Shown one piece after another: positions 25,347 through 45,361 of a stretch of 64,000 bases of DNA. The DNA comes from Bacilli bacterium (GTDB lineage Bacteria; Bacillota_I; Bacilli_A; RFN20; CAG-826). Each line of letters starts with the position of its first letter. Position 1 is the first letter of the stretch. The notes below the pieces were generated by a model that saw only the letters and a program-made list of their open reading frames with translations, made no database searches and had not been told where the DNA came from. The stretch spans positions 13,748 to 77,747 of the forward strand of contig JAGCDH010000015.1 of assembly GCA_017651165.1 (NCBI GenBank). The letters are read 5' to 3'. The translations under genes were made by a program, and so were the position numbers.

Positions 25347-25433
25347 GTGCCATTTCATCTGCTTTATTATAAAGCACAACAAGCAATTTGTCATTTTCGT
25401 TCATAAATGCAAAGTGTCTTTTAAGCATTAGTT

Positions 25434-26009
25434 TTATTGTATTCCTTCTAAAAAGTCTCTAACAGCTAAATCAAAAACACTTTTTAGCTCTTCACCATAC
25501 AATTCCGGTAAATATAACAGCGAATCATATTTCCCGCTATATTTATGATGCATAACAGCATATGAAAAAGCATACGCATCTAATTCGCAATCTTGTTTAA
25601 AATATTTGATGTTTTCATTTCCGTCCTTATCTAAAGACTTGATATAGTTCTCCCCTTCTACAATCCATCTTTTTATATATTCTTCACCAATTTCCGATTT
25701 GCCATCTTTATACAAAACTATCTGAATGTGCTGATAGATGTGCCTTATTTCATGAAGTATAAAATATTCAATTTCATATACTTTATTGCATTTAAAAGCG
25801 GCATCGACAAAAGCTAAATTAATAGACAAAACATTGGTTATTCTGTTGACTGTTGCAGTAATTGAAACATTATCATCCCAAGCAAAACACCACTTGATTG
25901 GTTCATCGATGTCTGTATAAATTTGGTTAGATTCAATAAGTAACTTGATTAGTGGACTATATACTTCTATCAAACGCTTAAAATGATCTTTATTCGTGCT
26001 GATACTCAT
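25434..26009 (-). CDS. HExxH zinc metallopeptidase-like protein (ImmA/IrrE-like)
   Basis: FILHEIRHIYQH plus downstream ELDAYAFSYAV (E..A..FA third-ligand block of COG2856-type peptidases). ATG at 26009 lies 4 nt after the NACHT gene stop; the track start at 26168 overlaps that gene. Confidence 0.5.
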   Translation of the reverse strand: MSISTNKDHFKRLIEVYSPLIKLLIESNQIYTDIDEPIKWCFAWDDNVSITATVNRITNVLSINLAFVDAAFKCNKVYEIEYFILHEIRHIYQHIQIVLYKDGKSEIGEEYIKRWIVEGENYIKSLDKDGNENIKYFKQDCELDAYAFSYAVMHHKYSGKYDSLLYLPELYGEELKSVFDLAVRDFLEGIQ

Positions 26010-26013
26010 AAAA

Positions 26014-29000: not shown

Positions 29001-30585
29001 CATAATTCATTTCGTAGATTAAATCGCCAATCCAAATCTGATATCTCCTAAAGCCGCTTTCGCCATATTTGATGATGCCATCTAAAAACGAGTCAACGCT
29101 TTCTTTGTTTTTAAAGTCATCGGATAAATATTGGCAAAAACATATATCTTCAAAAAGATCGTATTTCATCCTTATTCCATACTTTTCATTTTTTAAAACG
29201 ACGCCGTTGTTAATAAGGATGCTTAAAACCTTTTCATCAACAAGAGATTCGTCAATTCCTAGTTTTCTTTCTTTAGACCTCTCAATAACAATGTCTTTGA
29301 CTGTTTTTATCAATAGGTGTCTATTATCTATTTTCTTCTCTGAAAGACAAATACATTTGTCATAAATCACCCTTTTAAGTTCGGCAACGCTGGTAATATT
29401 ACTATCAATAGAATTCTTAACAATAATATCAACGTATAAAGGTGTCGTAACAACCTCGGAAAAGCTTTTTCCAAGTTTCTTCAAAACAGGAAACTCTTTG
29501 AGCAAGATATTCTTTTCTTCTGTTGAAAGGTTGTCTATGGCAACAGAACATAGGTCTTTTTCGTATTTTAAAAAGAGGTTTTGAAAATGAAGATAATCAC
29601 GTGTCCTACAGGTGACAAAGATTTTTAAATTATCGTACTCTCTGGTTAATAGTAGTAATTCGTCGATAGTTTTATCTTTGCCGAGATAATCTGACACAAA
29701 TTCCAGAGAATCAATACAAAATGTCACTATTTTATTTTTTGTATAATTCAACAATTTTCTTAAATCTATTGACCAAAGATCGTTAATGTTTTTTGCATTA
29801 ATCACTTCTTCTGCTCTGGCAAACAAAAGAATCTCACTATCTTTTATTACTTCCTTGCAAATGGCAGACTTACCAGAACCGGCATCACCTTTGATAACAA
29901 TTATCTTTGATTTACTGCCGCGAATTGTTTTAATTGTTGCTGATCTATCCAAATGAAACCCGTTATTGCCGATTGTTGTGAATATGTCATCCAAAAAGCA
30001 TCCTTTTGATTTTTTTACGGCATTAATTAATTTCGCGCTTATATCACCGACACTAACCGCTTCTTCATAAAGATATTCATATACTCTATTCCTAAACGTT
30101 TTATCATATCTTGATTTTTTTATGACGTCACTCAAAAACACAATATCGCTTTCAGGATTAAATTCGATTCCGTCTATATTTTCTTTAGAAAGCGATTTGA
30201 TATCAGCCATATTAAGAAGAAAGAAAGTAATCCTTTTTATGTCTTTGACATCTTTGTCTTCCTTTTTCCTCAATTCTTTAAATGATTTCAAAGTACTCGT
30301 TATTTTAGCCTTTGAATATTTGGTAACACTCACTTGTATAAACACGTCACCATCTCTGGACTTTAAATCAACGCATTTCCATCCGGGTTTGATAGCATTT
30401 AAATTGCAAAAATCTTGATTGTAATATGCCTCACATATTTCTTTTGCAAAATCCTCAAAAAGAATAGCTTCATCAATTAAACCCGCCGATATGCTTGCAT
30501 TAACTACATTTGTATAGTTTTCAATTCTGTCCTTGATGAAATCTATTTGTTTTTTGATAGGTGTTTTATCCATAATTGCTTTCAT
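26014..30585 (-). CDS. NACHT/STAND-class NTPase, 1523 aa, with N-terminal effector-like domain and long helical C-terminal region
   Basis: Walker A IKGDAGSGKSA, Walker B IVTFCIDSLEF (hhhhDxhDE-like), sensor-1-like IFVTCRTRDY. N-terminal CVDLKSRDGDVFIQVSVTK is a possible Mrr/PD-(D/E)xK-like core. About 1100 aa of helical repeats follow. Confidence 0.6.
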   Translation of the reverse strand: MKAIMDKTPIKKQIDFIKDRIENYTNVVNASISAGLIDEAILFEDFAKEICEAYYNQDFCNLNAIKPGWKCVDLKSRDGDVFIQVSVTKYSKAKITSTLKSFKELRKKEDKDVKDIKRITFFLLNMADIKSLSKENIDGIEFNPESDIVFLSDVIKKSRYDKTFRNRVYEYLYEEAVSVGDISAKLINAVKKSKGCFLDDIFTTIGNNGFHLDRSATIKTIRGSKSKIIVIKGDAGSGKSAICKEVIKDSEILLFARAEEVINAKNINDLWSIDLRKLLNYTKNKIVTFCIDSLEFVSDYLGKDKTIDELLLLTREYDNLKIFVTCRTRDYLHFQNLFLKYEKDLCSVAIDNLSTEEKNILLKEFPVLKKLGKSFSEVVTTPLYVDIIVKNSIDSNITSVAELKRVIYDKCICLSEKKIDNRHLLIKTVKDIVIERSKERKLGIDESLVDEKVLSILINNGVVLKNEKYGIRMKYDLFEDICFCQYLSDDFKNKESVDSFLDGIIKYGESGFRRYQIWIGDLIYEMNYDAVAEILIGCHRERYFKSTVAGILISDNCQAFISFLAKYNDIDYSTFIEICNEYAFEAAKRNSDFVFKPIGAGRLALLENLPLDLIRHGKINLADVIGLLNGLIQQKTYISVASKHISDITEEVFNLLINEEWIDFDLIDVLMTVPFYIQQHSVKWFIPLMNGILEKYLYNFYEDGKRILISLLKYHIEDSLNEQIVYSEDFASFMTDISYKFFTLNPNKKTGATIFPHYDGFDTRFKDRFGFSEGAHSLSDELDYRYYPLVSNFFITLIRSNFSLALCYLFKLADFAGGNLLTKENASKIEVTLANGINKSFVFHSDLFSLGESELSSSTFISDMFYVAKLETEKLLKNSASNKELCKAVVKRIYEICVKNSATVASLSLLSFIDYYLFCYYPDGIFALANSYEIVINDIILFHEENEVDSNKQFFENHIFASLGVPYKKKYDLRRKLDLGSSLYNLFFVDNYDQNVYKEKFSIIYSKYKKDKRITTYYEGYDGSIKSPKQMLAERKEQIQKKENYIDRSKYIENEVAEILHRRDIERAKALVDYILSLPTNEMTVFSRWLVYSISVIIIDKTITYDERNKHCEIWMNGIDADRVFVFDNSLILALVGQIKFDISEQQRDWIKRYAFKVLTSSINDIDTAQQAPYIVGFLAVDEELRNSCLNALIGCSTVHYEIFGNNPNKLFSQEQFESLKSKEEEKKQIIIEACLFNNKKFHIDSLDFKKCDPYYLEKACELFLTVQNCRLGEGLKMVGALFDKMMIEDQRRPLSFSKSNLAVHISKPLFADYPSATKTIEFLFSYISTHKYCRAVFETINRALCELESLLFASDDAKEYLFKVIDFELASFESIKELDINNEIKLGMAFIKNNYGSSKKRSNLSLNVFQKHKLIALYKLNNPICLNAILRKILTYPSDSLMPEVLEVINSFVKSLINDDELNKLRESKTILETFVCELYFEYRETIKSNNALKQKYQELLDNLSSIHFSKASIVSIYFQLL

Positions 30586-30639
30586 ACTTATATTATGCGA
30601 TATCTAAAGGAACGATGGAATTAGTTTGAAAATCTAGGC

Positions 30640-30670
30640 AAAAAAAGATGATGCCAATAAAAGCATCATC
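30640..30670 (-). terminator. rho-independent terminator between rfbB and the NACHT gene
   Basis: Minus strand GATGATGC-TTTTATTG-GCATCATC followed by TTTTTTTG. Confidence 0.7.
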
Positions 30671-30702
30671 GGTATTGTTTCATCTTCTGTTAAATTCTAG
30701 AC

Positions 30703-30719
30703 AGTAATGCGAGCCATGT
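30703..30719 (-). repeat. hairpin/mini-ORF element, truncated copy B (left arm only)
   Basis: Minus strand ACATGGCTCGCATTACT. It shares the first ~16 nt with copies A and C and then diverges (MARITV-stop). Confidence 0.45.
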
Positions 30720-30728
30720 ACTATTTTG

Positions 30729-31757
30729 CTATTTCCTGTTATCGTAGTTCTTCTTTAGCCATTCGGCGTTTTGTGCCATACATTCATTGAGCCAAGTAGA
30801 ACCTTTATCCGATAAATACCATTCAATGGTTTTCTTAATGCCAACTTCAAAAGTGGTAATTGGATCCCAACCTAATTCTTTATTAGCTTTCGCAGGATCA
30901 ATCGCATATCTTTGGTCGTGTCCATGTCTATCCGCGACAAATTCAATTAATGATACTGGTTTATTCAGTTCAGAAAGAATGCGTTTAACAATATACAAGT
31001 TATTTCTTTCGTTATGACCACCTAAGTTATATACTTCCCCTACTTTGCCTCTTTCTAATACCGCAAGGATACCTCTACAGTGGTCTTCAACATATAACCA
31101 GTCTCTAACATTAATGCCTTGACCGTAAACAGGTAGTTTTTGATCATGGTTAGCTTTATATATCATTAAAGGTATTAGTTTTTCTGGGAATTGATATGGG
31201 CCATAGTTATTAGAACATCTAGAGATAGTAACTGGTAGACCATAGGTACGGTAGTACGCTAATACTAATAGGTCCGCACTAGCTTTAGATGTGCTATATG
31301 GGCTAGATGTATGTAATGGAGTATCTTCGTGGAAGAATAAGTCTGGTCTATCTAATGGTAAATCACCATATACTTCATCAGTAGATACTTGATGATATCT
31401 TTCAATGCCGTATTTCCTACACGCATCCATTAAAACTTCTGTACCAATAATATTAGTGGTTAAGAAACTTTCTGGATCTAAGATAGATCTATCAACATGA
31501 GATTCTGCTGCAAAGTTAACAACAATATTTGGTTTTTCTTCTTCAAATATCTTATTAATTGCTTCTCTATCTCTAATATCAGTCTTATAGAACTTATAGT
31601 TAGGATTATTTAATTCTTCTTTGATAGTATTAGGATTAGCGGCATATGTTAAAGAATCAACATTCACCACTTTCCAGTCTTTTCTTTCATTTAATAATAA
31701 TTTGCAGAAGCAGTTACCAATAAAACCCGCTCCACCTGTCACTAATATTGTTTTCAT
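30729..31757 (-). CDS. rfbB: dTDP-glucose 4,6-dehydratase
   Basis: ILVTGGAGFIGNCF Rossmann motif, STDEVYG, YSTSKASAD (YxxxK); 342 aa. Confidence 0.9.
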   Translation of the reverse strand: MKTILVTGGAGFIGNCFCKLLLNERKDWKVVNVDSLTYAANPNTIKEELNNPNYKFYKTDIRDREAINKIFEEEKPNIVVNFAAESHVDRSILDPESFLTTNIIGTEVLMDACRKYGIERYHQVSTDEVYGDLPLDRPDLFFHEDTPLHTSSPYSTSKASADLLVLAYYRTYGLPVTISRCSNNYGPYQFPEKLIPLMIYKANHDQKLPVYGQGINVRDWLYVEDHCRGILAVLERGKVGEVYNLGGHNERNNLYIVKRILSELNKPVSLIEFVADRHGHDQRYAIDPAKANKELGWDPITTFEVGIKKTIEWYLSDKGSTWLNECMAQNAEWLKKNYDNRK

Positions 31758-31807
31758 ATCATTCTCCTTTCGGCGAGCAATGCATGAATCGATGCAATGC
31801 GAGCCAT
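31754..31807 (-). repeat. hairpin/mini-ORF element, full copy C (38-nt core 31770-31807; mini-ORF MARIASIHALLAERRMI)
   Basis: Minus strand ATGGCTCGCATTGC-ATCGATTCAT-GCATTGCTCGCCGA, directly followed by AAGGAGA. The mini-ORF stop overlaps the rfbB ATG as ATGA. Confidence 0.5.
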
Positions 31808-31814
31808 ATATTGC

Positions 31815-32846
31815 TTAGGTAACCTTCTTTGGTTTAAGTTTCAAAGTGTTGCCAATTATTACCGTCTTCATTATATAAACGTCTAGTTCCTTTTTGCGCG
31901 CAATTTCAATAATTGCGCCCTTGTCATATTCGCTTATCTTTTCGCCTAAATAAACTGCTTTGGGTTTTGCGACCCCTAGTTTAACATAATTATCATTTGC
32001 TCGACCAATGATGGGGTTGTAATTATAGCCAATGAGCCTCCATTCGTTTTCATAATACCACGGAAGTTTCTTTCTATAATATGCGTTTTGAATAAAATGA
32101 ATTGTCTCTTTTTCGTTATAGTTTTTAAGAGATTGCTCAAGAGGAAAAACAATTGGATTGTATCCTCCATCGGCATCAATCTTCTCCAAAACCGCATCTA
32201 TGTAATTATTGCACAAATCCGTAACATTGTATTTATCGTTTTGATAAATAACAGGTAGTAATGGATCATGAATGATGTCTTTATTGAAAGAATAGCCTTT
32301 AATGACATCTAGTTCCGAAACAATATCAAAGATAGATTCTTGATGCTCGATGCCTATTCTTCTTAAGGTACTGTAGTCATATTCAAGAACAAATCCAGTT
32401 GCCAATCCTGCATAATGTGCCCACATTATTTCTTGGTTAACATCAGTGGAAAAGCAAGCAAATGCATACACATTATTGCCAAATTGAATGTCTGGGGCCA
32501 AATCTCTCTCATAAATACAATTAACAAGTTCGTTTATTTGGCTACAATGTAAATTGTTTTGCTTTAATAATCTCTTTAAGAATTTATTATTCTTAACAAG
32601 ACTGCTTTTGATATGTTTTTTAATCTGTCTTTCAGAAAATCTAACAGCAGCATCGTATGGATCGTTAAACGCTACTGGGCAAGTTGCATATATCTCATCT
32701 TTTATGAATTGATTGATTGTGTGCTTATTAATTGGTCTATATCGGTATAGGGAAAACTTGTCATTATTGATAGCAATATTGACCTCTGTTTCTTTTTCCG
32801 TCCTAATTACTTTGACAGTGTAGTTTTTATTTTTCGCTATTTTCAT
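31815..32846 (-). CDS. DUF2971-family protein
   Basis: LYRYRPINKHTINQFIKDEIYATCPVAFNDPYD matches the DUF2971 N-terminal hallmark (Y.Y....l..l....l.f..p..fNDP.D). The start lies 9 nt after the paralog A stop. Confidence 0.55.
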   Translation of the reverse strand: MKIAKNKNYTVKVIRTEKETEVNIAINNDKFSLYRYRPINKHTINQFIKDEIYATCPVAFNDPYDAAVRFSERQIKKHIKSSLVKNNKFLKRLLKQNNLHCSQINELVNCIYERDLAPDIQFGNNVYAFACFSTDVNQEIMWAHYAGLATGFVLEYDYSTLRRIGIEHQESIFDIVSELDVIKGYSFNKDIIHDPLLPVIYQNDKYNVTDLCNNYIDAVLEKIDADGGYNPIVFPLEQSLKNYNEKETIHFIQNAYYRKKLPWYYENEWRLIGYNYNPIIGRANDNYVKLGVAKPKAVYLGEKISEYDKGAIIEIARKKELDVYIMKTVIIGNTLKLKPKKVT

Positions 32847-32855
32847 AGTCTACTT

Positions 32856-33581
32856 CTAATCCATCAGTTTTTGAAAATATCCATAAAGCGGACTATCTAA
32901 TCCAATAACTTGATTAGATGTCTCACTAAATGGATTACTAATCAATATTTTATTTTGATAAATATAATATTCGTTATTTTGATAATAAAAGCCAGAGAAA
33001 TATTTATCAGTGCCACTCATATTGCTGCTTATTAGATATCTACATTCTTTATCAGTAGTTATTGTTTCTGACGTTGGTAAATATGTATCAAGGGATATAG
33101 TTCCTTCATCTAAAGATAATTTAGTATCTAAATCTAAAGATAATAAATATGGAACAAAATTATCAAAGCCACTATAAGGATAATTGCTTAATCTATAATA
33201 ATAGACTTTAGATTCACTTCTAACTTCAATATTAAGATCAAATGATGTAGAAATATCACTATATGTTACTGATACCACATCCGTTAATATATCTTCATCA
33301 AATCCATCCACAACCAATTGATTCTTAACAATACCTTTAAATACCTCATCTATCTTATTAACACCATAATCATACTTTATAGAGGAACTATTACTAGATT
33401 GAGGGTCACTACTATTGTTATTACATTTCTTTAAACCAAGAAGAACAAGTAATAAAAGGATAACAATAAAAAGAAGAGTACCAATAACAGAAGCAATAAC
33501 TATTTTTAAGTCACGTTTCGCTTGTTTTTTCTTCTGCTCCTTATTATCTTGTTCCAACTCTTTTTTCTCTTTGTTTAACAT
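32856..33581 (-). CDS. membrane-anchored protein of unknown function (paralog A of 24479..25264)
   Basis: Lys/Glu-rich N-terminus, a single TM (IASVIGTLLFIVILLLLVLLGLKKC), Ser-rich linker, Tyr-rich ectodomain. Confidence 0.55.
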   Translation of the reverse strand: MLNKEKKELEQDNKEQKKKQAKRDLKIVIASVIGTLLFIVILLLLVLLGLKKCNNNSSDPQSSNSSSIKYDYGVNKIDEVFKGIVKNQLVVDGFDEDILTDVVSVTYSDISTSFDLNIEVRSESKVYYYRLSNYPYSGFDNFVPYLLSLDLDTKLSLDEGTISLDTYLPTSETITTDKECRYLISSNMSGTDKYFSGFYYQNNEYYIYQNKILISNPFSETSNQVIGLDSPLYGYFQKLMD

Positions 33582-33645
33582 AATATATTCCTTTTAATAG
33601 GCTATTCTAATAATAGTAAGATAAGGTTTATATTCTAACGAAATA

Positions 33646-34416
33646 TTATTTTAAACCGCAAATAATTCTATGATTTATTTCGTTACAAATATTATCTAAG
33701 TCTGGCATTAAATGGAATTCATCATAACCAAGTTTCTCTAAATATAAGAGCGCTTCCGCTCTGATGGCATCATCAATAATGATAATTTGAGATTTCTCGG
33801 CGATTCTATTCTCTACAGATTCTTTTGTTAATTTGGTCGGAACAACAAAAAGCCCTTGTTGGACAAGCATCCTTTGATTGCGATAGTTAGGCTTCGCTGT
33901 GTATATTCCAGTTTTCTTTGATAGTTTCTTAAATTCCTTATTTAGTATATCGCAATAAGGCACATCTATTTGAAATGCCATATCATCTAACGTCAGGGTT
34001 GCTGTTTTTGAATTAAAATATGGCTCTGACTTAATTGAGTCATATATAACGTTGGTATTTGTTTTATCGAGCGCATATATGATATATTCTCCGTCTTTTC
34101 CCTTGGCGTTTCTTAGGCAAAAGAATAATGCAACATAAGGATTGCTCGTGAAATCAATTAATCTAGTCATTAACCCACAATGTTGCGCCAGTGCAAGAAA
34201 TTCCCAACAGTTATTAGCGGTTGAATATAAACCATAGTATTTTTCGAATGTTTTTAATATTTGATATTCCTTTTTCGAATAGTCATTATCTCTGATTATT
34301 TTTGGATACAATTGATTCTTATTATTGACGCCACGAAATATAGCATTTCTTTCCATCAACTCGTCAAATAGTTGTTTTAATTCTACTAAAGTTTTTATTC
34401 TAATAACGCTTCCCAT
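33646..34416 (-). CDS. FRG-domain protein
   Basis: IFRGVNN (FRG motif) and LALAQHCGLMTRLIDFTSNPYVALFF (AQHyG.pT.llD.T block). AGGAG RBS. Confidence 0.65.
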   Translation of the reverse strand: MGSVIRIKTLVELKQLFDELMERNAIFRGVNNKNQLYPKIIRDNDYSKKEYQILKTFEKYYGLYSTANNCWEFLALAQHCGLMTRLIDFTSNPYVALFFCLRNAKGKDGEYIIYALDKTNTNVIYDSIKSEPYFNSKTATLTLDDMAFQIDVPYCDILNKEFKKLSKKTGIYTAKPNYRNQRMLVQQGLFVVPTKLTKESVENRIAEKSQIIIIDDAIRAEALLYLEKLGYDEFHLMPDLDNICNEINHRIICGLK

Positions 34417-34494
34417 AAAATCTCCTAATAATACATTTTTGAATCCAACGGCTTATAATCCTGACTCATTTTAGTGAACCCGACGTTTTATAAA

Positions 34495-36774
34495 CTATTC
34501 CTTGTTATCAATAGTCCACTTCAAAACATCTTCGAAATCTAAAAGGCAACAGTCAAATCCATACGATAATTCTTGATAAAAGCGATTGAGGTATTTATAT
34601 ATTTCATCCATGTTTGTTAGATTTCCACAATACAGGAACCTAAAACCAGTTTTATGAGTTCTAAGGCCTGTATTGATCAAATCGTTGAACGTTTTTAATT
34701 CTTGGTTTAATTGATTTAGGGTGCCATCAGCATTTCTTTGAAGAAGCATTCCGCTACTATCCACTGGAGCAAAATTATTAACGACCATTACAAGTGATCT
34801 GGATTTTTGTATTATTCTCGTTGTGTTGTTAAAACCAAGATCTCTATCTTCTTCATTGCAACAATAATTATTCAAAAACACTCTTATTCCATTTACACTT
34901 AATAAATCGCATAGTTTCTTGGCGGCGGCATAAGTGCCGTTTTCGCTACATGTCCCATGATACGCAATAAAAACATCGTAATCATAGTCTTCGTTAAGAT
35001 TTATCGTCGTCTCTGAAGCCATTATTTCGTTGATTCTATTTTGTATAATATCTCTTACCAAATCGCTTTTGGCATAAATGTTTAATGATGCAGTAGCACG
35101 AGTCATCAAAGTATATAGTTGCATATAAATATGTTGAAGGTTCTTCGTGTCTTTGTATGAAAACTCTTGCATTACATCTGGAATATATAAATAAATCGAT
35201 TCTGCTTCCCTAGAGATAATTTCGTATGGAGTTAAATAATACTTGGGAGCTATTTCATCGCTGAATAAGTAGTTAAAATAATCACTATAATTAGGTGGGA
35301 TTTTTGTTATGGTTTTATCACCACTTTCAAAATAATAACTAGTGACATTAGAAAGCGCTATCGAAACATAATGTTTTCTCTTACTTAAATCTTCTTCAAA
35401 AGCTTCTATAAAATCATCAGCATTATCAAAATTGATAATTTGATATTCACCAGGATTGATCGGTTTTATGCCGTCAAATCCTAACAGATATAAAATATTG
35501 GCCATTATTTCTTTTGGTATGCCTATAGTTTCATAAAACTTATGTTGTCTAAATGGCTTATCTGAGTAATACTCTTTGATTACATCAAATCCTTCGTCTT
35601 TATTAACGTTAATTCTTTGAAGATTATCACCAAAAAAGATTGTGCATTTATGGTTTTTAATATTCTTTATTGCCTCGAATGGATTAAACGCTGAATAATG
35701 CTTACCTGTATAGAAGCTGTTATAACTACCCATTCTTCCTAATCTTTGTGCTTCATCAACTATCAAAAAAGAAAAATCATCCACAAAAGATTTATCCATT
35801 TTGCTCTTTAGCCAACAACCGGTCTGCCTTGAAAAGTCATGATGATAAATCCTATTGCCAGGAAACTCTAAATTCATTGTTTTAAAAGCGCTCTTTAAAT
35901 CTTTATAAAACTTGTAATTCATCAAGAGAAGTTTGCAGTCTGGATACTTATTCAACAAAAGCATAGATAAAATGGTTTTGCCGCTTCTAGCCGGGCCTTC
36001 TATCGTAATATATTCAACGTTATTATCTATTTCAAAACAAATGTCATCATAGTTTTCCTTCGTTTGCTGAAATAATTCGAATTCACGTTCTCCCTTTGTA
36101 TAGGCATTAACACAATCAATTAATTCTTTATCTTTTGCTTCTGCTAAAACAAGTTCATCACTAACATTTTGAACAAATCTTACATAACGGGTAGCACCAA
36201 ATATTTCTGTTTTATTTGGATACTTTTTAAAAACAGAACTCGTATTCCAATAAAATATAGAAAAGTCATTCTTAGTTATTTGGCTCTTAGAATCGCAAAA
36301 GACCAAAACAATATAGACATACGAATGGACAAACCAAGCAAGGTGTCGCTTTTTAAGATTTCTAAAAATCATGTTGGCCAACCATTCGTCAAGAACCCCA
36401 CGATTTGTGGTTTCAGAGGCTAATAAACTGCTATTGATTGACCAATGAACATCAACATCTGGTTTATAAACAATAACATCTCTTTTAAGATTTGGAACAC
36501 GCGTACCAAAGGTAGTATTCCATAGGTTTTTATCAATAAAGCAGAAAAAACATGTTCTGGAATTGCGTTGCATTAAACGTCTGGTTTTGGTCAATCTTTC
36601 TGTCGTATCTTTAACAATGCTTGCATAAAAACAGTCAAAAGAAGGCATTGATAGTTTTTCAGAGATTGGTTTATCGAATTTAATATCCGCAATATGTTTG
36701 AAAAAATAGGAAATGTAGTCCTCCTCACGAGAAGGTGTGCTATTTAGTAGGAAATCTCTATAATTCACTTTCAT
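34495..36774 (-). CDS. multidomain protein: N-terminal putative PD-DxK nuclease-like region, DUF2075-type P-loop NTPase, C-terminal TIR domain
   Basis: Walker A EGPARSGKT, Walker B FLIVDEAQRL. C-terminal YDVFIAYHG...IRVFLNN...SLVMVVNN follows the TIR_2 pattern. N-terminal YKPDVDV...IVLVFCDSK is a tentative nuclease core. The track start at 36870 is TTG, so ATG at 36774 (GAAGAGGA upstream) was chosen. Confidence 0.6.
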   Translation of the reverse strand: MKVNYRDFLLNSTPSREEDYISYFFKHIADIKFDKPISEKLSMPSFDCFYASIVKDTTERLTKTRRLMQRNSRTCFFCFIDKNLWNTTFGTRVPNLKRDVIVYKPDVDVHWSINSSLLASETTNRGVLDEWLANMIFRNLKKRHLAWFVHSYVYIVLVFCDSKSQITKNDFSIFYWNTSSVFKKYPNKTEIFGATRYVRFVQNVSDELVLAEAKDKELIDCVNAYTKGEREFELFQQTKENYDDICFEIDNNVEYITIEGPARSGKTILSMLLLNKYPDCKLLLMNYKFYKDLKSAFKTMNLEFPGNRIYHHDFSRQTGCWLKSKMDKSFVDDFSFLIVDEAQRLGRMGSYNSFYTGKHYSAFNPFEAIKNIKNHKCTIFFGDNLQRINVNKDEGFDVIKEYYSDKPFRQHKFYETIGIPKEIMANILYLLGFDGIKPINPGEYQIINFDNADDFIEAFEEDLSKRKHYVSIALSNVTSYYFESGDKTITKIPPNYSDYFNYLFSDEIAPKYYLTPYEIISREAESIYLYIPDVMQEFSYKDTKNLQHIYMQLYTLMTRATASLNIYAKSDLVRDIIQNRINEIMASETTINLNEDYDYDVFIAYHGTCSENGTYAAAKKLCDLLSVNGIRVFLNNYCCNEEDRDLGFNNTTRIIQKSRSLVMVVNNFAPVDSSGMLLQRNADGTLNQLNQELKTFNDLINTGLRTHKTGFRFLYCGNLTNMDEIYKYLNRFYQELSYGFDCCLLDFEDVLKWTIDNKE

Positions 36775-36873
36775 CTTAGATCTACTATCCTCTTCACAAA
36801 AATAATAAGAAAAGATGATTGATAAATCAATCCAAACTAAGGAGCCAAACGCAATTAATATAATTAACAATCA

Positions 36874-36902
36874 ATAATAAAAATGGCGTTGTTTCCAACG
36901 CC
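36874..36902 (-). terminator. rho-independent terminator after the Abi_2/HEPN gene
   Basis: Minus strand GGCGTTG-GAAA-CAACGCC followed by ATTTTTATTATT. Confidence 0.7.
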
Positions 36903-36931
36903 ACTTATTTAAAATAGCAATAATATATTGC

Positions 36932-37603
36932 TTAAATAGTTTTCACAAACTTTCTTAAATCGGCAGTAATACCGCCATGACCATTTTTACCATGTCTATA
37001 TCTTTCAGGTAATAACTGTCTTAGATTCTTAATGTTGTTCTCCAGAGAATTTGATTGATATCCATCGACAGTGCAGCTCTTAAAATTATATGTTTTTAAA
37101 AACTTATGATGACCTATGCAATTCCTTAATTCTTTAACTGCTTGTAAGTTCTCGTTGGTGCCCACTCCACCAAATAGTTCGTCTTTATCCGACCGCGGTA
37201 ATGCTTGCACTTGTTGAATCAATGTTCCTAAATCTGTATCTTGAAGAATTTCAAATAATGGCTTTCCTTTAGTAATATTATCTTTAATGCTATTGTGGTT
37301 GCCTTTCCCGTTAATCCAGAACGATTGATTCAGATCATTTTCATATTTATTGGATATATAGGCTCTTATATATTCTTCTAATGTCGCTAGATAAATATAT
37401 AAAGTATCCCTTAATCCTTTATCTAAGCGTAGTTCGTCTGATATTTGTTTCCAGATTATTGCTTGGTTATTGTTCTCTTTTAAAAGATAATCATAAATCT
37501 CTTTATGAAGAGATAAACCCTTTACTTTAATGTAAAAAAGCGCGTCATCGCGCTCCTCATTACTATTGAATATTATTTTAGATAAGAATTGTTCTTTGGT
37601 CAT
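36932..37603 (-). CDS. Abi_2 (AbiD/AbiF-like) HEPN-domain protein
   Basis: LRLDKGLRDTLYIYLATLEEYIRAYISN and ELRNCIGHHKFL (Rx4H) fit the Abi_2 family pattern. The start overlaps the upstream stop as ATGA. Confidence 0.55.
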   Translation of the reverse strand: MTKEQFLSKIIFNSNEERDDALFYIKVKGLSLHKEIYDYLLKENNNQAIIWKQISDELRLDKGLRDTLYIYLATLEEYIRAYISNKYENDLNQSFWINGKGNHNSIKDNITKGKPLFEILQDTDLGTLIQQVQALPRSDKDELFGGVGTNENLQAVKELRNCIGHHKFLKTYNFKSCTVDGYQSNSLENNIKNLRQLLPERYRHGKNGHGGITADLRKFVKTI

Positions 37604-38241
37604 TTTGGTTGGTATTTATTATAGAAGTTATTCACTCCTTCATAGAATATATCAATTGTTGGAATTCTATTATTTTCGTGTTTTTTCTTTTCTTCTATGA
37701 TACGTGGTATCACAAACTCTTCAAGTAGTTCTCTTTGAGCGTTGCCACATAGATTATTAAATCTTTGATAAATATATGTATTCTTACTAGGTAGTTCAAC
37801 CCAAGTATATTGGTCTTTTCCGTTTCTTCTGATTCTTAGTGATTCAGTATGATCGATAATGACAAAATCAAAAGAGAACTTTTCTAAATCTGCATCAAAC
37901 TTATTATTGCTTTTAGAACATCTAACGGTCACCACTGTTGTGGAATCTTCCACCTTCTCATTCTTATTAGCGCATTCAGTGAAAGCACACAAAAATGCTT
38001 TCTTAATATCAGTGGGTTTAAGACTACCTTTGCAGTTATGTGTTAACACTATTTGGTAATCTAAATCATATTTACCATTACTATCTTGGATAACACATCT
38101 ACGTTTTTGAGAACCAATTAGTTTGATATTGAACTTATATAGCTTATGAATCTTCTTATGCTTTCTTACATCATGTATCAATTTATTCGCTCTAGCACGA
38201 GCTTCACGATATGAGTTGTAAGGAAGAAGTATGGGGATCAT
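37600..38241 (-). CDS. minimal nucleotidyltransferase-fold protein (MNT/SMODS-like)
   Basis: LIGSQKRRCVIQDSNGKYDLDYQIVL (GS...DxD) with a later acidic strand FSFDFVIID; 213 aa. Confidence 0.5.
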   Translation of the reverse strand: MIPILLPYNSYREARARANKLIHDVRKHKKIHKLYKFNIKLIGSQKRRCVIQDSNGKYDLDYQIVLTHNCKGSLKPTDIKKAFLCAFTECANKNEKVEDSTTVVTVRCSKSNNKFDADLEKFSFDFVIIDHTESLRIRRNGKDQYTWVELPSKNTYIYQRFNNLCGNAQRELLEEFVIPRIIEEKKKHENNRIPTIDIFYEGVNNFYNKYQPK

Positions 38242-38247
38242 TATATG

Positions 38248-40191
38248 CTATTCGTTGTTTTTAATAATATCTATAAACAATTTGTTTCTTGCGTTTGCAT
38301 CTGCACAAATGGTTTTAGCCGAAATGATATATGTATGGCATGGTATAGGTTTATTATCAGCATTCAAAATGTTCTCGTTATAATAGTAAAACATATGCTC
38401 ATCATTGTTATCAAACATTCTTTTAATTCCGTGTATCTTTTTAATTCTGTTTAAAAACACATCATCAAAAGAAGTGATTATGAATCCATAAAGAGCATTG
38501 ATGTCTTCTAAGTTTGCAGCGATTATTCCATTATTTCTATCTATTTCTGAAATCGCATCTATTTTCTTGTTGTAGTCCGCACCAAGCGCTTTAAATTCTA
38601 CGACCACTGCAGATTTATTAGAGTAAAACAGCGCCAAATCAGGCTCAACAGCATCATCAACTCCATCAGCAATATCTGCATTTTTAATTTCTTCTAGAAT
38701 TTTCTTAACCTTTTTGTCACTAAATGCATTATTGCAAGACATAAACTTGTCATCTAACAACCAAATATTATTTTTCAGCCTATCCTTCAAAGATTCACCA
38801 AGTACAAGTCCTTGTGGAATAAAGAGATCGTGTAGTAATTTTTCAACTGGTTCATTTCTCTCGATGTATTTTGCAAGGCAATCTATAACTTGTTGTCTGT
38901 ATAAGAAATATTTCGATAGTTCTCGATTGGAAAAATCGCTTAAATTAACAATTCCTTCCACGAGTTCTTCTCTATTGATGTCGTCAACCATAAAGATTTT
39001 TGATACTTCGTCTAACGCCTTTTCCTTATCTTTGCCATACTTGGTTTCAGATGCAGAAATTAGTTTCTTTTCGTCAACGATGATTGAATCATCTTCTTCT
39101 ATATATTTCTTAAGATATGGGTATTTGTTAATACATTCTAGTTTTTTCTTTGCGTTATCTTCTACAACAGCTGGATATTCACTGACGATTATTTTTTCAA
39201 TTTGTTTGGTGATTTCTTCTTGAATCTCTTTTGAGGAAAAACTAAATAAGGCATTTTCGCTATTGCCAAAAACAAAACCGGTTCTAGAATCGTTAACACT
39301 GTTGTTCAAATAATTTGATTTGACGAGACAAATCATCGAATCATCATTCGGCAACGAAGAAATAATATCTCCTTTTTCATTTATGTCGGTTATGCCCCTA
39401 TCATCTGCGCACAAAACAATTTGTCTTTTTTTGGCACCATCTTTAATAAAGCGATAATACAATTTAAACGATTCGCTATATGAATCTTTTGACATTGTAA
39501 ATAGCACTTTTTTAAGGATAAGCAAATCTTTATTGGTTATCGTTTGTTTGTTTTCTTCGGAATCATCAGATATTTCGATGAAAAAATTTCTTCCCTTTTC
39601 ATTCAACAGGAATAGCTTAATAGCAAAAGTATTTAAGATTGTCTTGCGAATTTCTTCGAGTGGTAAGAACACGTAGTTGTTTTGATTTAATATGCACTCA
39701 GTAAAATCAATTCTTGTCTCATTAACCGCAACTTTTTTAGAAGAGACATTATCTATAATTGACAAGCATTCTTCGTTTGCTTCATCAAATTCTTTACTAA
39801 AATTGATTATTACTCTTTTTGTTTTGATTTGACTATTAATTTTCACCATCGAAAATGCCTTAAGCCAAGTAAATCTGCCAACTCCCTTACACCCCAATCC
39901 TAGCTTATAAGTTGATAGGTATTCTAAGAACGAATCAATGTTGTCCTGATTAAAGCCATCACCATCATCAAATATACTAAAACTATCGTAAACTTTAGAA
40001 TCAACTATTGATGGTACTGTATGAAAAACTATTTTAATGTTTTGTGCATTTGCTTCGAGCGAGTTCGAAAGAGCTTCATAAAGAACTTGTAAAATTGAAA
40101 TCTTTACTTTGAAACTATCAACGATATTTTTAACTTTTGCTTTCATACTATTTATTATTGTGACCGCTTTTCTTATTTGAATAAAATGCAA
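38248..40191 (-). CDS. GHKL (Bergerat-fold) ATPase with C-terminal PD-ExK nuclease-like domain
   Basis: N-box EALSNSLEANA, G1 DDGDGF, G2 GCKGVGRFTW. C-terminal EPDLALFYSNKSAVVVEFK (PD...ExK). The track start at 40191 is TTG; the first ATG is at 40146 (MKAKVKN). The start is uncertain. Confidence 0.55.
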   Translation of the reverse strand: MHFIQIRKAVTIINSMKAKVKNIVDSFKVKISILQVLYEALSNSLEANAQNIKIVFHTVPSIVDSKVYDSFSIFDDGDGFNQDNIDSFLEYLSTYKLGLGCKGVGRFTWLKAFSMVKINSQIKTKRVIINFSKEFDEANEECLSIIDNVSSKKVAVNETRIDFTECILNQNNYVFLPLEEIRKTILNTFAIKLFLLNEKGRNFFIEISDDSEENKQTITNKDLLILKKVLFTMSKDSYSESFKLYYRFIKDGAKKRQIVLCADDRGITDINEKGDIISSLPNDDSMICLVKSNYLNNSVNDSRTGFVFGNSENALFSFSSKEIQEEITKQIEKIIVSEYPAVVEDNAKKKLECINKYPYLKKYIEEDDSIIVDEKKLISASETKYGKDKEKALDEVSKIFMVDDINREELVEGIVNLSDFSNRELSKYFLYRQQVIDCLAKYIERNEPVEKLLHDLFIPQGLVLGESLKDRLKNNIWLLDDKFMSCNNAFSDKKVKKILEEIKNADIADGVDDAVEPDLALFYSNKSAVVVEFKALGADYNKKIDAISEIDRNNGIIAANLEDINALYGFIITSFDDVFLNRIKKIHGIKRMFDNNDEHMFYYYNENILNADNKPIPCHTYIISAKTICADANARNKLFIDIIKNNE

Positions 40192-40322
40192 CGATAAATT
40201 ACGCTTACTCCATTTTCATCGTTTTCAAATCTAATTAATTGTAACAGAAAAACTCTTCATTAATCATATTAATACCGTTATTGATAATTATTAAATAGTC
40301 TAAATAGAAAAAGAGGGAACCT

Positions 40323-41327
40323 TTATTGTGGTTTTGTTTCTTCTTCCTTTGGTTCGTCCTCTGCTTCGTTGTTTGAAGATTCTTCGACTCTTTTTGGGTC
40401 GTTGTTTTTGTTTTCCAGTTTTTCTTTCTTTAATTGAAGATATTCTCTTAAATATTTTTCTCTTTTTTGCTTCTTTTCAGAATCTGACAAAGTATCATCG
40501 AGATCAATATCATTTAATGCCTTTACAAATAATTCCTCCTCAAAAGCACAAACTATTGTTTCGATAATAATGTCATAATCTTTTTTCATATATGGCTTTT
40601 CTAAGAGGGCCTTCTTTTTTCGGGAAAAAACTGTCACAACATCCATAAACACCTGAACAAAAGTGTTTGTTGTAAAGAATAAAGATAAAGTAAACAAAAG
40701 CGAGAGCACTTCTTTGTTTATAGCTCTATCCAAAAAGAACAAGCCACCAGAAAAAAGGGTTAAGAAAAAAGCGTTAATTATCAAGAAAACTAAAACAAAA
40801 TTCATATCAGAAAACTCTTCTTTAAGATTGTTGATAAACGATACTTGTTCGAGTCTTTGTTTTCCAATCATCTCATCAGGGTTTAATGTTGACGCTTGCT
40901 CAATTTTTGCTTCTTGATTTTGTATCCTGAAAAGAAAGATAGCTGCAGACACACCAAAAATAGCCCATTCAATACCTAGCAAAGAATCACAAAGCGTTAA
41001 ATCAACATGAGAAGAGTTATAAATCGCAACCGAAAAAATAGATAAGAGAATAAGGAAAGTTAATAATGATCTCAAATGAGTCATTACAAATTTTGACAAC
41101 TTGTTATATCTGTTAATTGAATACATTATAATCGCCGTGATAACAAGAGACAGCATTAAAGAAACGACAATAAAAACAATTAAAATAACATCTCTGTTCT
41201 TTATTGTATAAATGCTATCTAAATAAAATAATATTGGAGTTCCGATTGAGAAAAACAAAAACCAAAAAACAATGGTAAGCAGAATAATAACAACTACCAA
41301 TTTGATAACCGATATAATTTTTTTCAT
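40323..41327 (-). CDS. polytopic membrane protein of unknown function with acidic/Lys-rich C-terminal tail
   Basis: Several hydrophobic helices in two clusters separated by a polar loop. The C-terminal ~90 aa are highly charged. No motif recognised. Confidence 0.4.
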   Translation of the reverse strand: MKKIISVIKLVVVIILLTIVFWFLFFSIGTPILFYLDSIYTIKNRDVILIVFIVVSLMLSLVITAIIMYSINRYNKLSKFVMTHLRSLLTFLILLSIFSVAIYNSSHVDLTLCDSLLGIEWAIFGVSAAIFLFRIQNQEAKIEQASTLNPDEMIGKQRLEQVSFINNLKEEFSDMNFVLVFLIINAFFLTLFSGGLFFLDRAINKEVLSLLFTLSLFFTTNTFVQVFMDVVTVFSRKKKALLEKPYMKKDYDIIIETIVCAFEEELFVKALNDIDLDDTLSDSEKKQKREKYLREYLQLKKEKLENKNNDPKRVEESSNNEAEDEPKEEETKPQ

Positions 41328-41383
41328 AAATTTTTCTATAGCTATTTTAAAATGTTTAAAGTATCATTACTCGCTATTGTTAA

Positions 41384-42697
41384 TTAATAGCCATTCCAAT
41401 CCCATTCAAATCTTTCAATGTCTTCTTCTATAAGTTCATCTCCGATTTGAACTTCTATAATATGTAATTCTTCTATTGCTTTAATTGAGTAGCGGTCTTC
41501 TTTATTAATAATAACGCTTTCACCAGCATTAACTTCTCTAACAGAATCGTTTATTAATAATAGGCCTTTACCTTTAACGATAGTCCATGTTTCGCTTCTA
41601 TGTTTATGCTTTTGATAGCTGATGCTCTTGCCTGGTATAATCACTAGTTCTTTAGTGAGCGATTTAATACCATTATCAAATTGTTGGAAATATAGCACTC
41701 TATATTCGCCCCATATTCTCTTTTCAAACATCGGACGATTATCAGGAACATATTTCTTTAAGTATGAGCTGGCGTGTTTGTCAGATACTAAGATGCCGTC
41801 TGGTGACGCTGCAACAATAATATTCTTTAATCCTAAACCCACGATTGGTATCGCAAGTTCATTAACGATATGTGTGTTTTCACAGTTTTCACCTAACACG
41901 CAGTTATTACCTGTTGGGTCTTGCATGGCCTCAGTAAATGTATTCCATGTACCTAAGTCCTTCCATTCACCATCATATTCAATAACTTTAATATCTTTTT
42001 CATGCTCCGCCACTGCGTAGTCAAAGCTAATCTTTGTTAAATTAGCATAGTTATCAAATAGCTCTTTATAGTTAGATGTTCCACATAACTCTTTTGCTTT
42101 ATCTAAAAGATATTTAATCTTAAATGCGAAAACACCACCATTCCATAAAGCACCTTGTTTGATATATTCTTCAGCAGTTGCTAAATCTGGTTTTTCTTTA
42201 AACTGAACCTCGTCTTTTTTAGGAATGATGTAACCATACTTCTCAGATGGATATGTTGGTTTAATACCCATTAATGTAAGATTACTTTTGCCTGCAACCT
42301 CATACATCTTTTGTAGTGTTTTAAAATAGCCTTCTTCCACAAGTGGGTCAACAGGGCATATCACAACCCCTTCGTTTTCACTAATTCCTAAAACATAATG
42401 AAAATACGCTACAGAAAGCGCTACTGCGGGGAAGGTATCTCTACGACAAGGCTCAATTGATATTTCAACATTTTCACGCAGCTGTCTTTTAATTGACGCT
42501 ACTTGTGTTTCTGAAGTAGCGACTACAATTCTGGCATCAGGAGATACCTTTTTTATCATTCTATACATTCTTTGAACCATGGACTCATGTCGTCTATCTT
42601 CCGTTCTAAGAATTTTTAGAAACTGTTTGGATCTAACCTCATTAGAAAGAGGCCAAAGACGTGTGCCTGATCCGCCAGACAGTAGAATAATATTCAT
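41384..42697 (-). CDS. manC: mannose-1-phosphate guanylyltransferase with C-terminal cupin (type II PMI-like) domain
   Basis: MNIILLSGGSGTRLWPLS nucleotidyltransferase motif; C-terminal cupin (YQKHKHRSETWTIVKG). The track start at 42727 is TTG, so ATG at 42697 was chosen. Confidence 0.8.
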   Translation of the reverse strand: MNIILLSGGSGTRLWPLSNEVRSKQFLKILRTEDRRHESMVQRMYRMIKKVSPDARIVVATSETQVASIKRQLRENVEISIEPCRRDTFPAVALSVAYFHYVLGISENEGVVICPVDPLVEEGYFKTLQKMYEVAGKSNLTLMGIKPTYPSEKYGYIIPKKDEVQFKEKPDLATAEEYIKQGALWNGGVFAFKIKYLLDKAKELCGTSNYKELFDNYANLTKISFDYAVAEHEKDIKVIEYDGEWKDLGTWNTFTEAMQDPTGNNCVLGENCENTHIVNELAIPIVGLGLKNIIVAASPDGILVSDKHASSYLKKYVPDNRPMFEKRIWGEYRVLYFQQFDNGIKSLTKELVIIPGKSISYQKHKHRSETWTIVKGKGLLLINDSVREVNAGESVIINKEDRYSIKAIEELHIIEVQIGDELIEEDIERFEWDWNGY

Positions 42698-42874
42698 AAA
42701 ATTGACTTTTTTTCCTTTTTTAAACAAATTCTCTATATAAAGATATTAATTCGTGGATTATTAGTAAACGCCGTTATGCTTTCATTTGATGACATAAATG
42801 GCTCTTCCACTCTTTAGGCTACAAATAGCAAAAAGACGCTTTACCACAAATAGGTGATTTTTTATTTTTAATGC

Positions 42875-44119
42875 TTACTCCTTGCTAATAATGAAAACAA
42901 AATTCGTTGTAGCACTACCGCCAATGTTAAGCATCATAGCGTTTTTTGCGTTCTTAATTTGATATTCGCCGGCCTTACCGGACACTTGCTTGTAACAATC
43001 TAAGAACATTCTTGCTCCGCTTGCGCCAACAGGATGGCCGCATCCAATTAAGCCACCGCTTGGATTAATTGGTTTTTTGCCACTAAAAGCAATTGTTCCG
43101 TTTTCAACTGCTTCACATTCTTTTCCTGGTTCAGTTATACCAAATGCAGAAATCGCGGCATATTCACTAGAAGTAAAACAATCGTGTGTTTCAAAAACAT
43201 CAATGTCATCAACGGTTAAGCCACTTCTTCTATATGCATCCAATACAGCTTGTCTTGTCCAAGGAAGGACATATTCTGAATTAGCATTATCCTTAATTTT
43301 CTTGTCAAACAACAACGGAGCATTTCTATGGCCGTATCCTTTGACCACTACTTTGCTATCAATTCCTTTTTCTTTGACATATTTTTCAGAACAAAGAATA
43401 ACACAGCAAGCACCATCTGTTACTTGAGAGCAATCAGAAACCGCTAATCTTCCACCAACAAGAGGGTTTGTGTCATTTCCTCTTTGTGAGGCTTGTTCAA
43501 AACTCATAAACCATTTTCTAGTTTGGGCTTTTGGATTTCTTTTGGCGTTTTCATAGTTAATAACAGATATCTTAGCGAGAGCATCCATAAATCTCTTTTC
43601 ATCAAGATCTGGATATTTTTCTAAAATAGCATCCGCTAATCTACCAAAGAGTTTAGGGAACGGAAATTCAATGCCCTTTCCCTCTTTTTCGTAGTAAGCT
43701 GCTCTACCTAAAATATCTCCACCGACTTTTGAATCAACATATTTCATAATTTCAAAGCCAACAACAATAGCAACATCTATTTCACCGGCATTTATCTTTG
43801 TGATAGCAGCATCTAGCGCAACAGAACTCGATGCACATGCCGCTTCAAATCTAGCAGAAGGAACACCATAAAAGGCTTCATCTACTTCTGTTAAAAACGA
43901 TCCTAAATGACCTTGGTCGATATACAACTCACCAATGAAGTTGCCAACAAATGATTCGACCCTATTTTCTTTGTTGAGTCTTCTTAATTCTTCAAAAGAA
44001 AAACCAGTTTCTTCAAAGCCATCATGGATAACTTCTTTTAACAAGGCAACAAGATTTTTACCTTCTTTTTTCCAATTTCTTTCAAAATCGGTTTGAGCAC
44101 CACCTAATACATGTACCAT
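42875..44119 (-). CDS. thiolase-fold protein (acetyl-CoA acetyltransferase-like)
   Basis: Active-site Cys context [13 protein letters not shown]-terminal [11 protein letters not shown] and [11 protein letters not shown] at 44119 lies 1 nt after the upstream stop; the ATG at 44188 would overlap by 68 nt. Confidence 0.7.
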
Positions 44120-44120
44120 A

Positions 44121-45344: not shown

Positions 45345-45361
45345 AATTGATAAACCAACCA

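Follow-up and report, generated by a model that had tools for sequence, protein, structure and literature searches.

A 64,000-nucleotide (nt) stretch of DNA from a Bacilli bacterium (contig JAGCDH010000015.1), hereafter the window, encodes on its minus strand a protein of 759 amino acids (aa) that joins a family-specific N-terminal domain, a DUF2075/SF1 helicase-like NTPase core and a C-terminal TIR-like domain (Table 1). On balance, we favor the view that it is a stand-alone, single-polypeptide anti-phage protein, in which a nucleic-acid-sensing ATPase would control an NAD+-consuming effector. A preliminary description of the region had proposed a fusion of a nuclease-like region, a DUF2075 NTPase and a TIR domain, possibly forming a two-gene module with the FRG-domain gene that follows it, and the evidence bearing on each of these parts is laid out below.

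The C-terminal TIR-like domain and the central NTPase

The C-terminal domain very probably has a TIR-superfamily fold, as judged from its predicted structure and from profile comparisons. Its AlphaFold2 (AF2) model, built from a 12-sequence alignment (pLDDT 84.2, pTM 0.83), consists of alternating strands and helices, and when it was compared with the PDB by Foldseek, ranks 1-23 were all TIR domains (E 3e-4 to 7e-3, probability 0.97-1.0), namely those of AbTir, RUN1, RPS4/RRS1, TIR-STING, SARM1, TIR-1, PdTIR, BtpA, L7, IL-1RAPL2, RPP1 and MAL. AbTir (7uxu) matched at E 3e-4 with a template-modelling score (TM) of 0.66 normalised to the target. A narrow 12-sequence profile of the domain returned only noise from the PDB sequences; widened to 30 family members, the profile worked, its top eight matches being Caenorhabditis elegans TIR-1 (E 0.006) and seven SARM1 TIR entries, and the SARM1/TIR-1 sequences align with it in register over betaA to betaC. 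In Pfam searches with a lax threshold, TIR_2 was matched, sub-threshold, by 8 of the 30 members (best E 1.6e-4), TIR, SEFIR and CAP12-PCTIR_TIR were matched by one member each, and all other Pfam families were singletons. An hhalign comparison with a bona fide ThsB_TIR was supportive but weak (E 1.9e-4, 48% probability, betaA to betaB only).

The alignment of these 30 diverse members (A4) contains only three invariant columns, F13, E103 and F107 in domain numbering, and I14, A15, H17, G18, G24, A29, V75, N77, G86 and W164 are conserved at 90% or above. From this we derived the clade motif 'DVFIAYHG ... LLVxN ... E[ILV]xxF', in which the near-invariant His-Gly after betaA is peculiar to the TIR-like family. 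Glu692 is invariant both here and in the alignment of the window protein with its 12 full-length homologues (A1, 13 sequences, 38-97% identity), and is at least 90% conserved across 71 representative proteins. In the AF2 model it is residue 103 of the modelled fragment, within helix alphaC (residues 99-112) and after a long betaC-alphaC loop; this position, early in alphaC and behind such a loop, is presumably that of the catalytic Glu in TIR NADases, as in SARM1. We infer that Glu692 is a candidate catalytic residue. Residue 667 (~34774..34776, minus strand), just after betaC, is an Asn in the window protein and an Asp in all 12 other full-length homologues ('VVNN' versus 'V[IF]ND'), at a position that varies across the wider TIR-like family.

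A profile search of 1.84 billion representative proteins recovered 126 relatives of the TIR-like domain (P0038-P0155 among them), in which it is mostly N-terminal. Some of the 71 representatives that we scanned have LRR, TPR, NACHT/STAND, HD, IF-2B-like or HATPase_c_3 regions, the last in three proteins; FGE-sulfatase and methyltransferase regions were seen as further fusion partners. The 25 Pfam families most frequent in these 71 proteins (E <= 0.001) include no TIR family, and for the C-terminal domain of the window protein nothing was found in PADLOC or NCBIfam. We conclude from the profiles and the model that this domain belongs to a divergent TIR-superfamily clade that current models miss, and its fusions suggest a module that behaves as an immune effector or adaptor.

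The central domain appears to be a functional ATPase of the Nhi/Schlafen helicase class, because it matches PF09848 and has kept its motifs invariant. PF09848 (SLFN-g3_helicase, formerly DUF2075) scored 34.3 bits with the whole protein and 37.7 bits with the core alone, over a curated cutoff of 24 (E = 2e-8 to 2e-9), with profile positions 4-151 of 354 covered; generic AAA families also matched both, sub-threshold. No TIR, nuclease or defence-system model was matched when the whole protein and its separate domains were searched against Pfam, NCBIfam and PADLOC. In A1, the invariant residues are G260, A262, R263, G265, K266 and T267 in Walker A, D340, E341, Q343 and R344 in Walker B, G382, D383 and Q386 in GDxxQ, and T558, R559 and A560 in TRA, four sets that we take to be SF1 helicase motifs I, II, III and VI. 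The assignment to the DUF2075/Schlafen-group-3 helicase-type P-loop NTPases, made in the preliminary description, therefore stands, with the score above the curated cutoff and both Walker motifs intact.

Proposed mode of action and exchange of the effector

Under the reading that we favor, the N-terminal domain and the helicase-like ATPase would jointly recognize a nucleic-acid cue of infection, such as single-stranded DNA (ssDNA) or replication intermediates. The cue would then activate the C-terminal TIR-like domain, probably by conformational change or by oligomerization as in other TIR enzymes. The activated domain would use the invariant Glu692 to consume NAD+, and this consumption would arrest the growth of the infected cell or kill it, stopping phage replication by abortive infection. 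The sensing of such a cue is plausible because phage mutations in core replication proteins escape the defence protein Nhi and the related Nhi-like protein is sensitive to phage DNA methylation (bioRxiv 10.1101/2022.08.27.505566), and because ssDNA bound to the helicase domain of SLFN11 switches on the fused nuclease (as cited in PMC13056530).

The effector slot of the family is not always filled in the same way. In four relatives (P0014, P0015, P0016, P0019), whose NTPase cores are 34-36% identical to that of the window protein, the exact place of the TIR-like domain is held by a DarT domain recognized by Pfam (E 1e-15 to 1e-22). Most of the N-terminal domain is likewise present in P0014 and P0015, and relatives with both the N-terminal domain and the NTPase are ~32-36% identical to the window protein. 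DarT is an ssDNA thymidine ADP-ribosyltransferase. A Macro-domain gene is directly next in both DarT loci that have downstream sequence: in L013 (3129..6614) it begins 4 nt past the stop codon of the DarT fusion, and in L012 (6001..10082) it is a truncated copy, 59% identical. We came across no description of a DarTG variant with a fused helicase, although no literature search was aimed at one. At its N-terminus, P0016 also carries LRR_5 and Flg_new repeats. A third group (P0020-P0030, ~760-790 aa) consists of the N-terminal domain and the NTPase without a C-terminal effector domain, and has a ~170-aa insertion soon after the Walker A region. Because DarT occupies the TIR-like slot in relatives, the N-domain/DUF2075 chassis appears to take interchangeable C-terminal warheads, and both of those identified belong to NAD+-using enzyme classes.

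Several observations weigh against the favored reading. The preliminary description had recognized a TIR_2 pattern in the last part of the protein; the TIR-type fold, as predicted by AF2 and ranked by Foldseek, and the invariant Glu bear this out, but membership of TIR_2 does not follow, as aa 590-759 matched no TIR model of Pfam even at E <= 10. The Foldseek matches are of modest strength (E 3e-4 and weaker, TM 0.4-0.66), and from rank 24 on they include a nucleoside 2-deoxyribosyltransferase and several flavodoxin-like proteins. Glu692 is placed by conservation and predicted secondary structure, not by superposition in three dimensions, and although this Glu is present early in the predicted alphaC, the canonical Trp of WxxxE is not conserved in the TIR-like family. 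The model of the N-terminal domain found no match in the PDB by Foldseek (best E 0.05, TM 0.13) and nothing significant in BFVD, and the whole protein matched 0 families of PADLOC-DB v2 at E <= 0.01, Nhi models included. The family is also very rare, with 31 clusters in 5.8 billion sequences, and two independent cases of an FRG gene lying immediately downstream, discussed in the next section, exceed the naive chance expectation. The rarity is apparent in genomes as well, where we counted 8 family loci in 185,579 species genomes and 20 in metagenomes, with genome matches from Mycoplasmatota, Erysipelotrichaceae, Bacilli, Anaeroplasmataceae and Atopobiaceae assemblies. A profile of the N-terminal domain added only 10 proteins from the 5.8-billion-protein set, mostly fragments and of no new architecture, and a scan of IMG/VR found no viral relatives.

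We treat the N-terminal domain, provisionally, as a family-specific sensor or regulatory domain. An alignment of 21 sequences (A5) has F25, D56, R60, F77, N177, E207 and A224 as invariants, and the AF2 model reached a pLDDT of 82.4 and a pTM of 0.79. The domain had no match in Pfam, and PDB profile searches with the whole-protein and N-domain alignments returned nothing. The preliminary description had tentatively placed a PD-(D/E)xK nuclease core here. Both strings are present, but YKPDVDV sits in an insertion that is missing from P0004-P0006, P0008 and all more distant relatives, which make up half of the family, and the Lys of 'CDSK' is not conserved, its Asp being kept only among close relatives. 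Given this lack of conservation, and with no nuclease fold in the PDB resembling the confident model, the nuclease core was rejected.

These features bear on a different proposal, in which the N-terminal domain would be a cryptic nuclease that destroys phage DNA together with the helicase, and the TIR-like domain would only regulate or oligomerize. D56 and E207 are invariant and could belong to such an enzyme, and the BFVD matches below significance (E 0.07-1.1, probability <= 0.18) repeatedly include herpesvirus UL24 proteins, members of a PD-(D/E)xK family, a faint hint only. The effector-less group P0020-P0030 also indicates that the chassis may itself be active, and the order of an N-terminal domain followed by DUF2075 is that of Nhi and Nhi-like (bioRxiv 10.1101/776245; 10.1101/2022.05.11.491447). 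Nevertheless, we judge this proposal improbable: besides the lack of a conserved nuclease pattern and of any PDB fold, Pfam or PDB profile match for the domain, no PADLOC Nhi model was matched, and the invariant Glu and wide conservation of the TIR-like domain argue for catalysis at the other end of the protein.

The DarT-bearing relatives raise another alternative, that the TIR-like domain is a TIR/DrHyd/SLOG-like Rossmannoid acting on nucleotides or on helicase-exposed DNA and not on free NAD+, for instance as an N-glycosidase or as an ADP-ribosyl- or base-modifying enzyme. The chassis would then be a helicase that delivers an interchangeable enzyme to the DNA, RNA or nucleotides exposed there, and, in parallel to the DarT sisters, ADP-ribosylation, base excision and 2',3'-cyclic nucleotide formation are possible reactions. 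Such a helicase-coupled, nucleic-acid-directed mode is not known for bacterial TIRs, and it would be combined with a sensor domain whose fold lacks a counterpart among solved structures and viral predictions. The slot is indeed held in relatives by an ssDNA-modifying enzyme to which a helicase would supply its substrate, the nucleoside 2-deoxyribosyltransferase at rank 24 has a TM similar to those of the TIR matches, and the absent WxxxE Trp and the family's own His-Gly set the domain apart. Yet the best structural matches and the only sequence-profile matches are all TIR, and the TIR-like form, in contrast to the DarT form, has no Macro-like eraser gene beside it. We thus regard an action on nucleic acids or nucleotides as unlikely, and the delivery of such an enzyme by the helicase as having an equally small chance of being correct.

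A further possibility is that the TIR-like domain makes a small signal derived from ADP-ribose for a separate effector, without depleting NAD+, as in Thoeris. Bacterial TIR proteins such as ThsB do signal in this way, the relative in L004 has a bona fide ThsB_TIR gene directly upstream, and members of the domain family often form the N-terminus of sensor-like repeat proteins. However, neither a ThsA-like gene (SIR2/SLOG/Macro) nor any other conserved partner gene was found beside the TIR-like form in ~16 lineages, PADLOC finds no Thoeris component among the window neighbors, and DarT, the alternative effector in the same slot, is a direct toxin and not a signal generator. We therefore give signaling of this kind little credence, and retain direct consumption of NAD+ by a single polypeptide as the favored reading.

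The FRG gene, the gene model and the defence island

As the preliminary description had it, the next gene downstream on this strand, after a gap of 78 nt, is an FRG-domain gene, with no terminator in between. It is a clear member of its family (Pfam FRG 7e-21, 75.4 bits against a cutoff of 25; PADLOC PDC-S15 5e-43). A consensus scan of the gap detected no terminator-like hairpin, and the gap RNA is less stable than its own shuffles (z = +1.44). Read-through into the FRG gene is plausible, and the two genes may be co-transcribed in this genome. The FRG protein had been called one of unknown function; the Aravind group, however, placed Frg in the ADP-ribosyltransferase (ART) superfamily as a predicted NADase/effector (PMC9503650).

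Conservation of this neighborhood was assessed in ~16 lineages that have the TIR-like C-terminus and usable flanks. An FRG gene lies immediately downstream in only two of them, the lineage of the window and L005 (86% identity, whole island collinear) and that of L011, a 38% identity relative with a 60-nt gap and the gene on the same strand, so that FRG is not a conserved partner. In L001, it is found three genes upstream, together with DUF2971 and HATPase_c_3 genes, of which the DUF2971 gene adjoins it. The fetched flanks of ~13 other lineages (L002, L003, L004, L006, L007, L008, L009, L015, L017, L022-L026) contain no FRG gene according to precomputed Pfam annotation, Pfam and PADLOC scans of unannotated neighbors and a local FRG hidden Markov model (HMM) run over all fetched open reading frames (ORFs). 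We also considered whether the unannotated downstream ORFs of relatives are cryptic FRG genes, and ruled this out by all-versus-all BLAST, Pfam at E <= 0.1, PADLOC and the FRG HMM. The three FRG proteins, of 256, 345 and 391 aa, are only ~30-35% identical over ~70-100 aa, and their best PDC-S15 matches are to different sub-models.

The module suggested in the preliminary description, with the two genes co-transcribed and, for example, the TIR-like domain making a signal or FRG serving as co-effector or regulator, is doubtful in this light. The short gap with its ribosome-binding site, the placement of FRG in L005, L011 and L001, the related NAD+-using chemistry predicted for Frg (PMC9503650) and the fixed downstream Macro gene of the DarT variants would all accord with it. 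Against this, FRG is missing around the gene in ~13 lineages, its three copies are divergent, and PDC-S15 is read as a single-gene defence candidate. The FRG gene is probably an independent defence-island gene and not an obligate part of a system, and we are fairly confident that the DUF2075-TIR protein functions without an obligate partner gene. Since the two independent adjacencies are above naive chance, FRG is possibly a facultative partner, or both genes may prefer the same islands.

Both ORFs named in the preliminary description are real (34495..36870, 791 aa; 33646..34416, 256 aa; both on the minus strand), and all strings quoted from them were found (Walker A, Walker B, YKPDVDV, IVLVFCDSK, YDVFIAYHG, IRVFLNN and SLVMVVNN). 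They are more than chance ORFs, because full-length homologues of the larger one (38-97% identity) come from independent metagenomes and genomes, and the smaller one matches Pfam FRG. The 791-aa length of the former is obtained by reading from the first TTG. We consider ATG 36774 the likely start and the TTG form an over-extension, because the closest homologue (P0001, 97% identity, 759 aa) aligns from the same Met and because of the positions of a promoter-like site and a terminator, which fall inside or just before the extended ORF. The TTG start was rejected, the 32 extra aa being hydrophobic, without counterpart in P0001 and overlapping the promoter-like site.

The promoter-like site sits between ATG 36774 and the upstream hairpin, whose 11-pair stem includes 5 GC pairs and runs into a T-rich tail. 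The site itself is a pattern match only, and such matches are no more numerous in the region than in shuffles. From this arrangement, the DUF2075-TIR gene appears to have transcription signals of its own, namely the upstream terminator and the promoter-like site ahead of the ATG. A common operon with the upstream cyclase-like/Abi_2 pair was ruled out because the strong terminator separates them.

The surrounding 22-41 kb stretch of the window is a defence island, with genes for an AAA_21/AAA_15 ATPase, AbiH, an SMEK_N/STAND-like protein, DUF2971 (PDC-S31), FRG, Abi_2, a cyclase-like protein and an HATPase_c_3 protein. The 241-aa protein before DUF2971 looks like a single-pass membrane protein (hydrophobic at ~residues 26-50) and has no family match. 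The 213-aa (cyclase-like)/Abi_2 pair, which ends in the strong terminator (36906..36881), is kept in L005 (85% and 79% identity) and seems to be a small two-gene defence candidate in its own right. An HATPase_c_3 protein of ~640-665 aa is encoded close upstream of DUF2075-TIR-like genes in three lineages, that of the window, L001 (6049..7965) and L015 (3555..5552), and a full-length comparison of the window and L001 copies gives 31% identity.

The island is embedded in polysaccharide and sugar-nucleotide genes (window 22000..47000), and relatives in L002, L007 and L017 also abut glycosyltransferase genes, which suggests that capsule/exopolysaccharide loci are an insertion hotspot. Neighbors of relatives include Hachiman (HamA plus helicase), ThsB_TIR, PycTM with a cyclase (Pycsar-like), ABC-3C components, PDC-S54, a type I restriction-modification system, a RES-domain gene and recombinases. 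The RES-domain gene, found in L017 (4917..6011, from a Bacilli metagenome-assembled genome), overlaps the start of the DUF2075-TIR-like relative by 11 nt. RES domains are an ART-superfamily NADase toxin class, so this is another NAD+-related neighbor, like FRG.

Table 1. Features of the DUF2075-TIR gene and its surroundings, in window coordinates
Feature	Position	Strand	Basis or remarks
Complete gene, 759-aa three-domain protein (N-domain, DUF2075 NTPase, TIR-like)	34495..36774 (with stop codon)	-	ORF list, homologue P0001, translation check
N-terminal domain, family-specific	36025..36774	-	aa 1-250; alignment A5, AF2
DUF2075/SF1 helicase-like NTPase core	35005..36024	-	aa ~251-590; Pfam PF09848
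Walker A GPARSGKT	35974..35997	-	translation check
Walker B IVDEAQR	35743..35763	-	translation check
Motif III-like GDNLQR	35614..35631	-	translation check
Motif VI-like MTRAT	35092..35106	-	translation check
TIR-like domain with 'DVFIAYHG' betaA motif	34498..34992	-	aa ~595-759, 165 aa; AF2, Foldseek, profiles
Glu692 codon (E724 in 791-aa numbering), candidate catalytic Glu	34699..34701	-	conservation and AF2; codon verified
Promoter-like site TTGATT-17-TATTAT	36802..36830	-	upstream of ATG 36774; consensus scan
Intrinsic-terminator-like hairpin and T-run	36881..36906	-	3' end of upstream 213-aa/Abi_2 pair; consensus scan
Intergenic spacer, 78 nt	34417..34494	-	AGGAG ribosome-binding site, no terminator
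FRG-domain gene, 256 aa	33646..34416	-	Pfam FRG (PF08867), PADLOC PDC-S15
DUF2971 protein and preceding 241-aa protein	31815..33581	-	PADLOC PDC-S31, 5e-33
dTDP-glucose 4,6-dehydratase-like gene	30729..31757		stranded between defence genes
1523-aa protein, N-terminal SMEK, weak STAND-type P-loop	26014..30585	-	Pfam 2.8e-20; no PADLOC match
Abi_2/AbiD-like gene	36932..37603	-	4-nt overlap with 213-aa gene
213-aa gene	37600..38241	-	weak PADLOC 'oligonucleotide cyclase' matches (E 3.6e-6)
647-aa HATPase_c_3 protein	38248..40191	-	

Relation to known systems and significance

One of the closest parallels in layout is Nhi of Staphylococcus epidermidis (SERP2475), a single-protein DUF2075 helicase-nuclease defence (bioRxiv 10.1101/776245), together with Nhi-like, which protects against phage (bioRxiv 10.1101/2022.05.11.491447). 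These are likewise single polypeptides in a defence context, with a central DUF2075 domain after an N-terminal domain of ~200-250 aa. The window protein differs in that its N-terminal domain has no PD-(D/E)xK signature or fold match, in its additional TIR-like domain and in the absence of a PADLOC match; its predicted chemistry is the use of NAD+, whereas that of Nhi is the degradation of DNA. A similar logic to that proposed here is seen in the eukaryotic group III Schlafens, in which a DUF2075-type helicase is fused to an effector that, in SLFN11, is switched on when the helicase domain binds ssDNA (PMC13056530). Their effector is an N-terminal RNase of the AlbA_2 type, on whose nuclease domain recent bacterial Schlafen work centres, whereas that of the window protein is C-terminal and TIR-like, and AlbA_2 was not detected in it by Pfam.

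With the TIR immune proteins (SARM1/TIR-1, AbTir, TIR-STING, TIR-NLR/Avs-like proteins and ThsB), the window protein shares a predicted fold, a Glu that is predicted to lie early in alphaC and the fusion of the domain to a sensor or NTPase, which in relatives of its clade is represented by NACHT/STAND, LRR and TPR regions. In contrast to them, the domain is too divergent for Pfam, lacks the W of WxxxE and has its own 'FIAYHG' motif, and the partner NTPase is of the SF1 helicase type and not STAND. The Thoeris pairing of ThsB with a SIR2- or Macro/SLOG-type ThsA was found neither in the window neighbors nor beside relatives. Compared with DarTG, the sister proteins carry DarT at the C-terminus of the same chassis, followed by a Macro (DarG-like) gene, and both effector types use NAD+; the window protein has the TIR-like domain and no Macro gene, and the canonical DarTG toxin is a small free-standing protein without a helicase fusion. 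As for FRG/PDC-S15, the downstream gene is a clear member, but relatives do not generally keep it next to the DUF2075-TIR-like gene.

Full-text literature searches returned no description of a DUF2075-TIR or helicase-TIR fusion, in keeping with the preliminary description, to which this configuration was also unfamiliar. The general logic of a sensor NTPase and an NAD+-using effector is familiar, and the protein looks like a new single-protein form of known immune designs; its architecture and the exchange of TIR for DarT would be of interest to specialists in defence systems. If a role in defence is confirmed, this would be a new architecture in which a Schlafen/Nhi-type helicase ATPase drives a TIR-class effector within one chain, and a bacterial analogue of the helicase-domain-gated effector activation described for SLFN11. 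The immediate impact would be modest given the rarity of the family. Nevertheless, a chassis that swaps NAD+-using warheads, either TIR-like or DarT with its Macro antidote, would offer a natural experiment in which one sensor controls different toxins. Confirmation would also draw attention to a clade of TIR domains (~126 representative clusters) that escapes the present Pfam and PADLOC models; because this clade is fused to NACHT/STAND, LRR, TPR and HD regions, profile searches would be under-counting TIR-based immunity.

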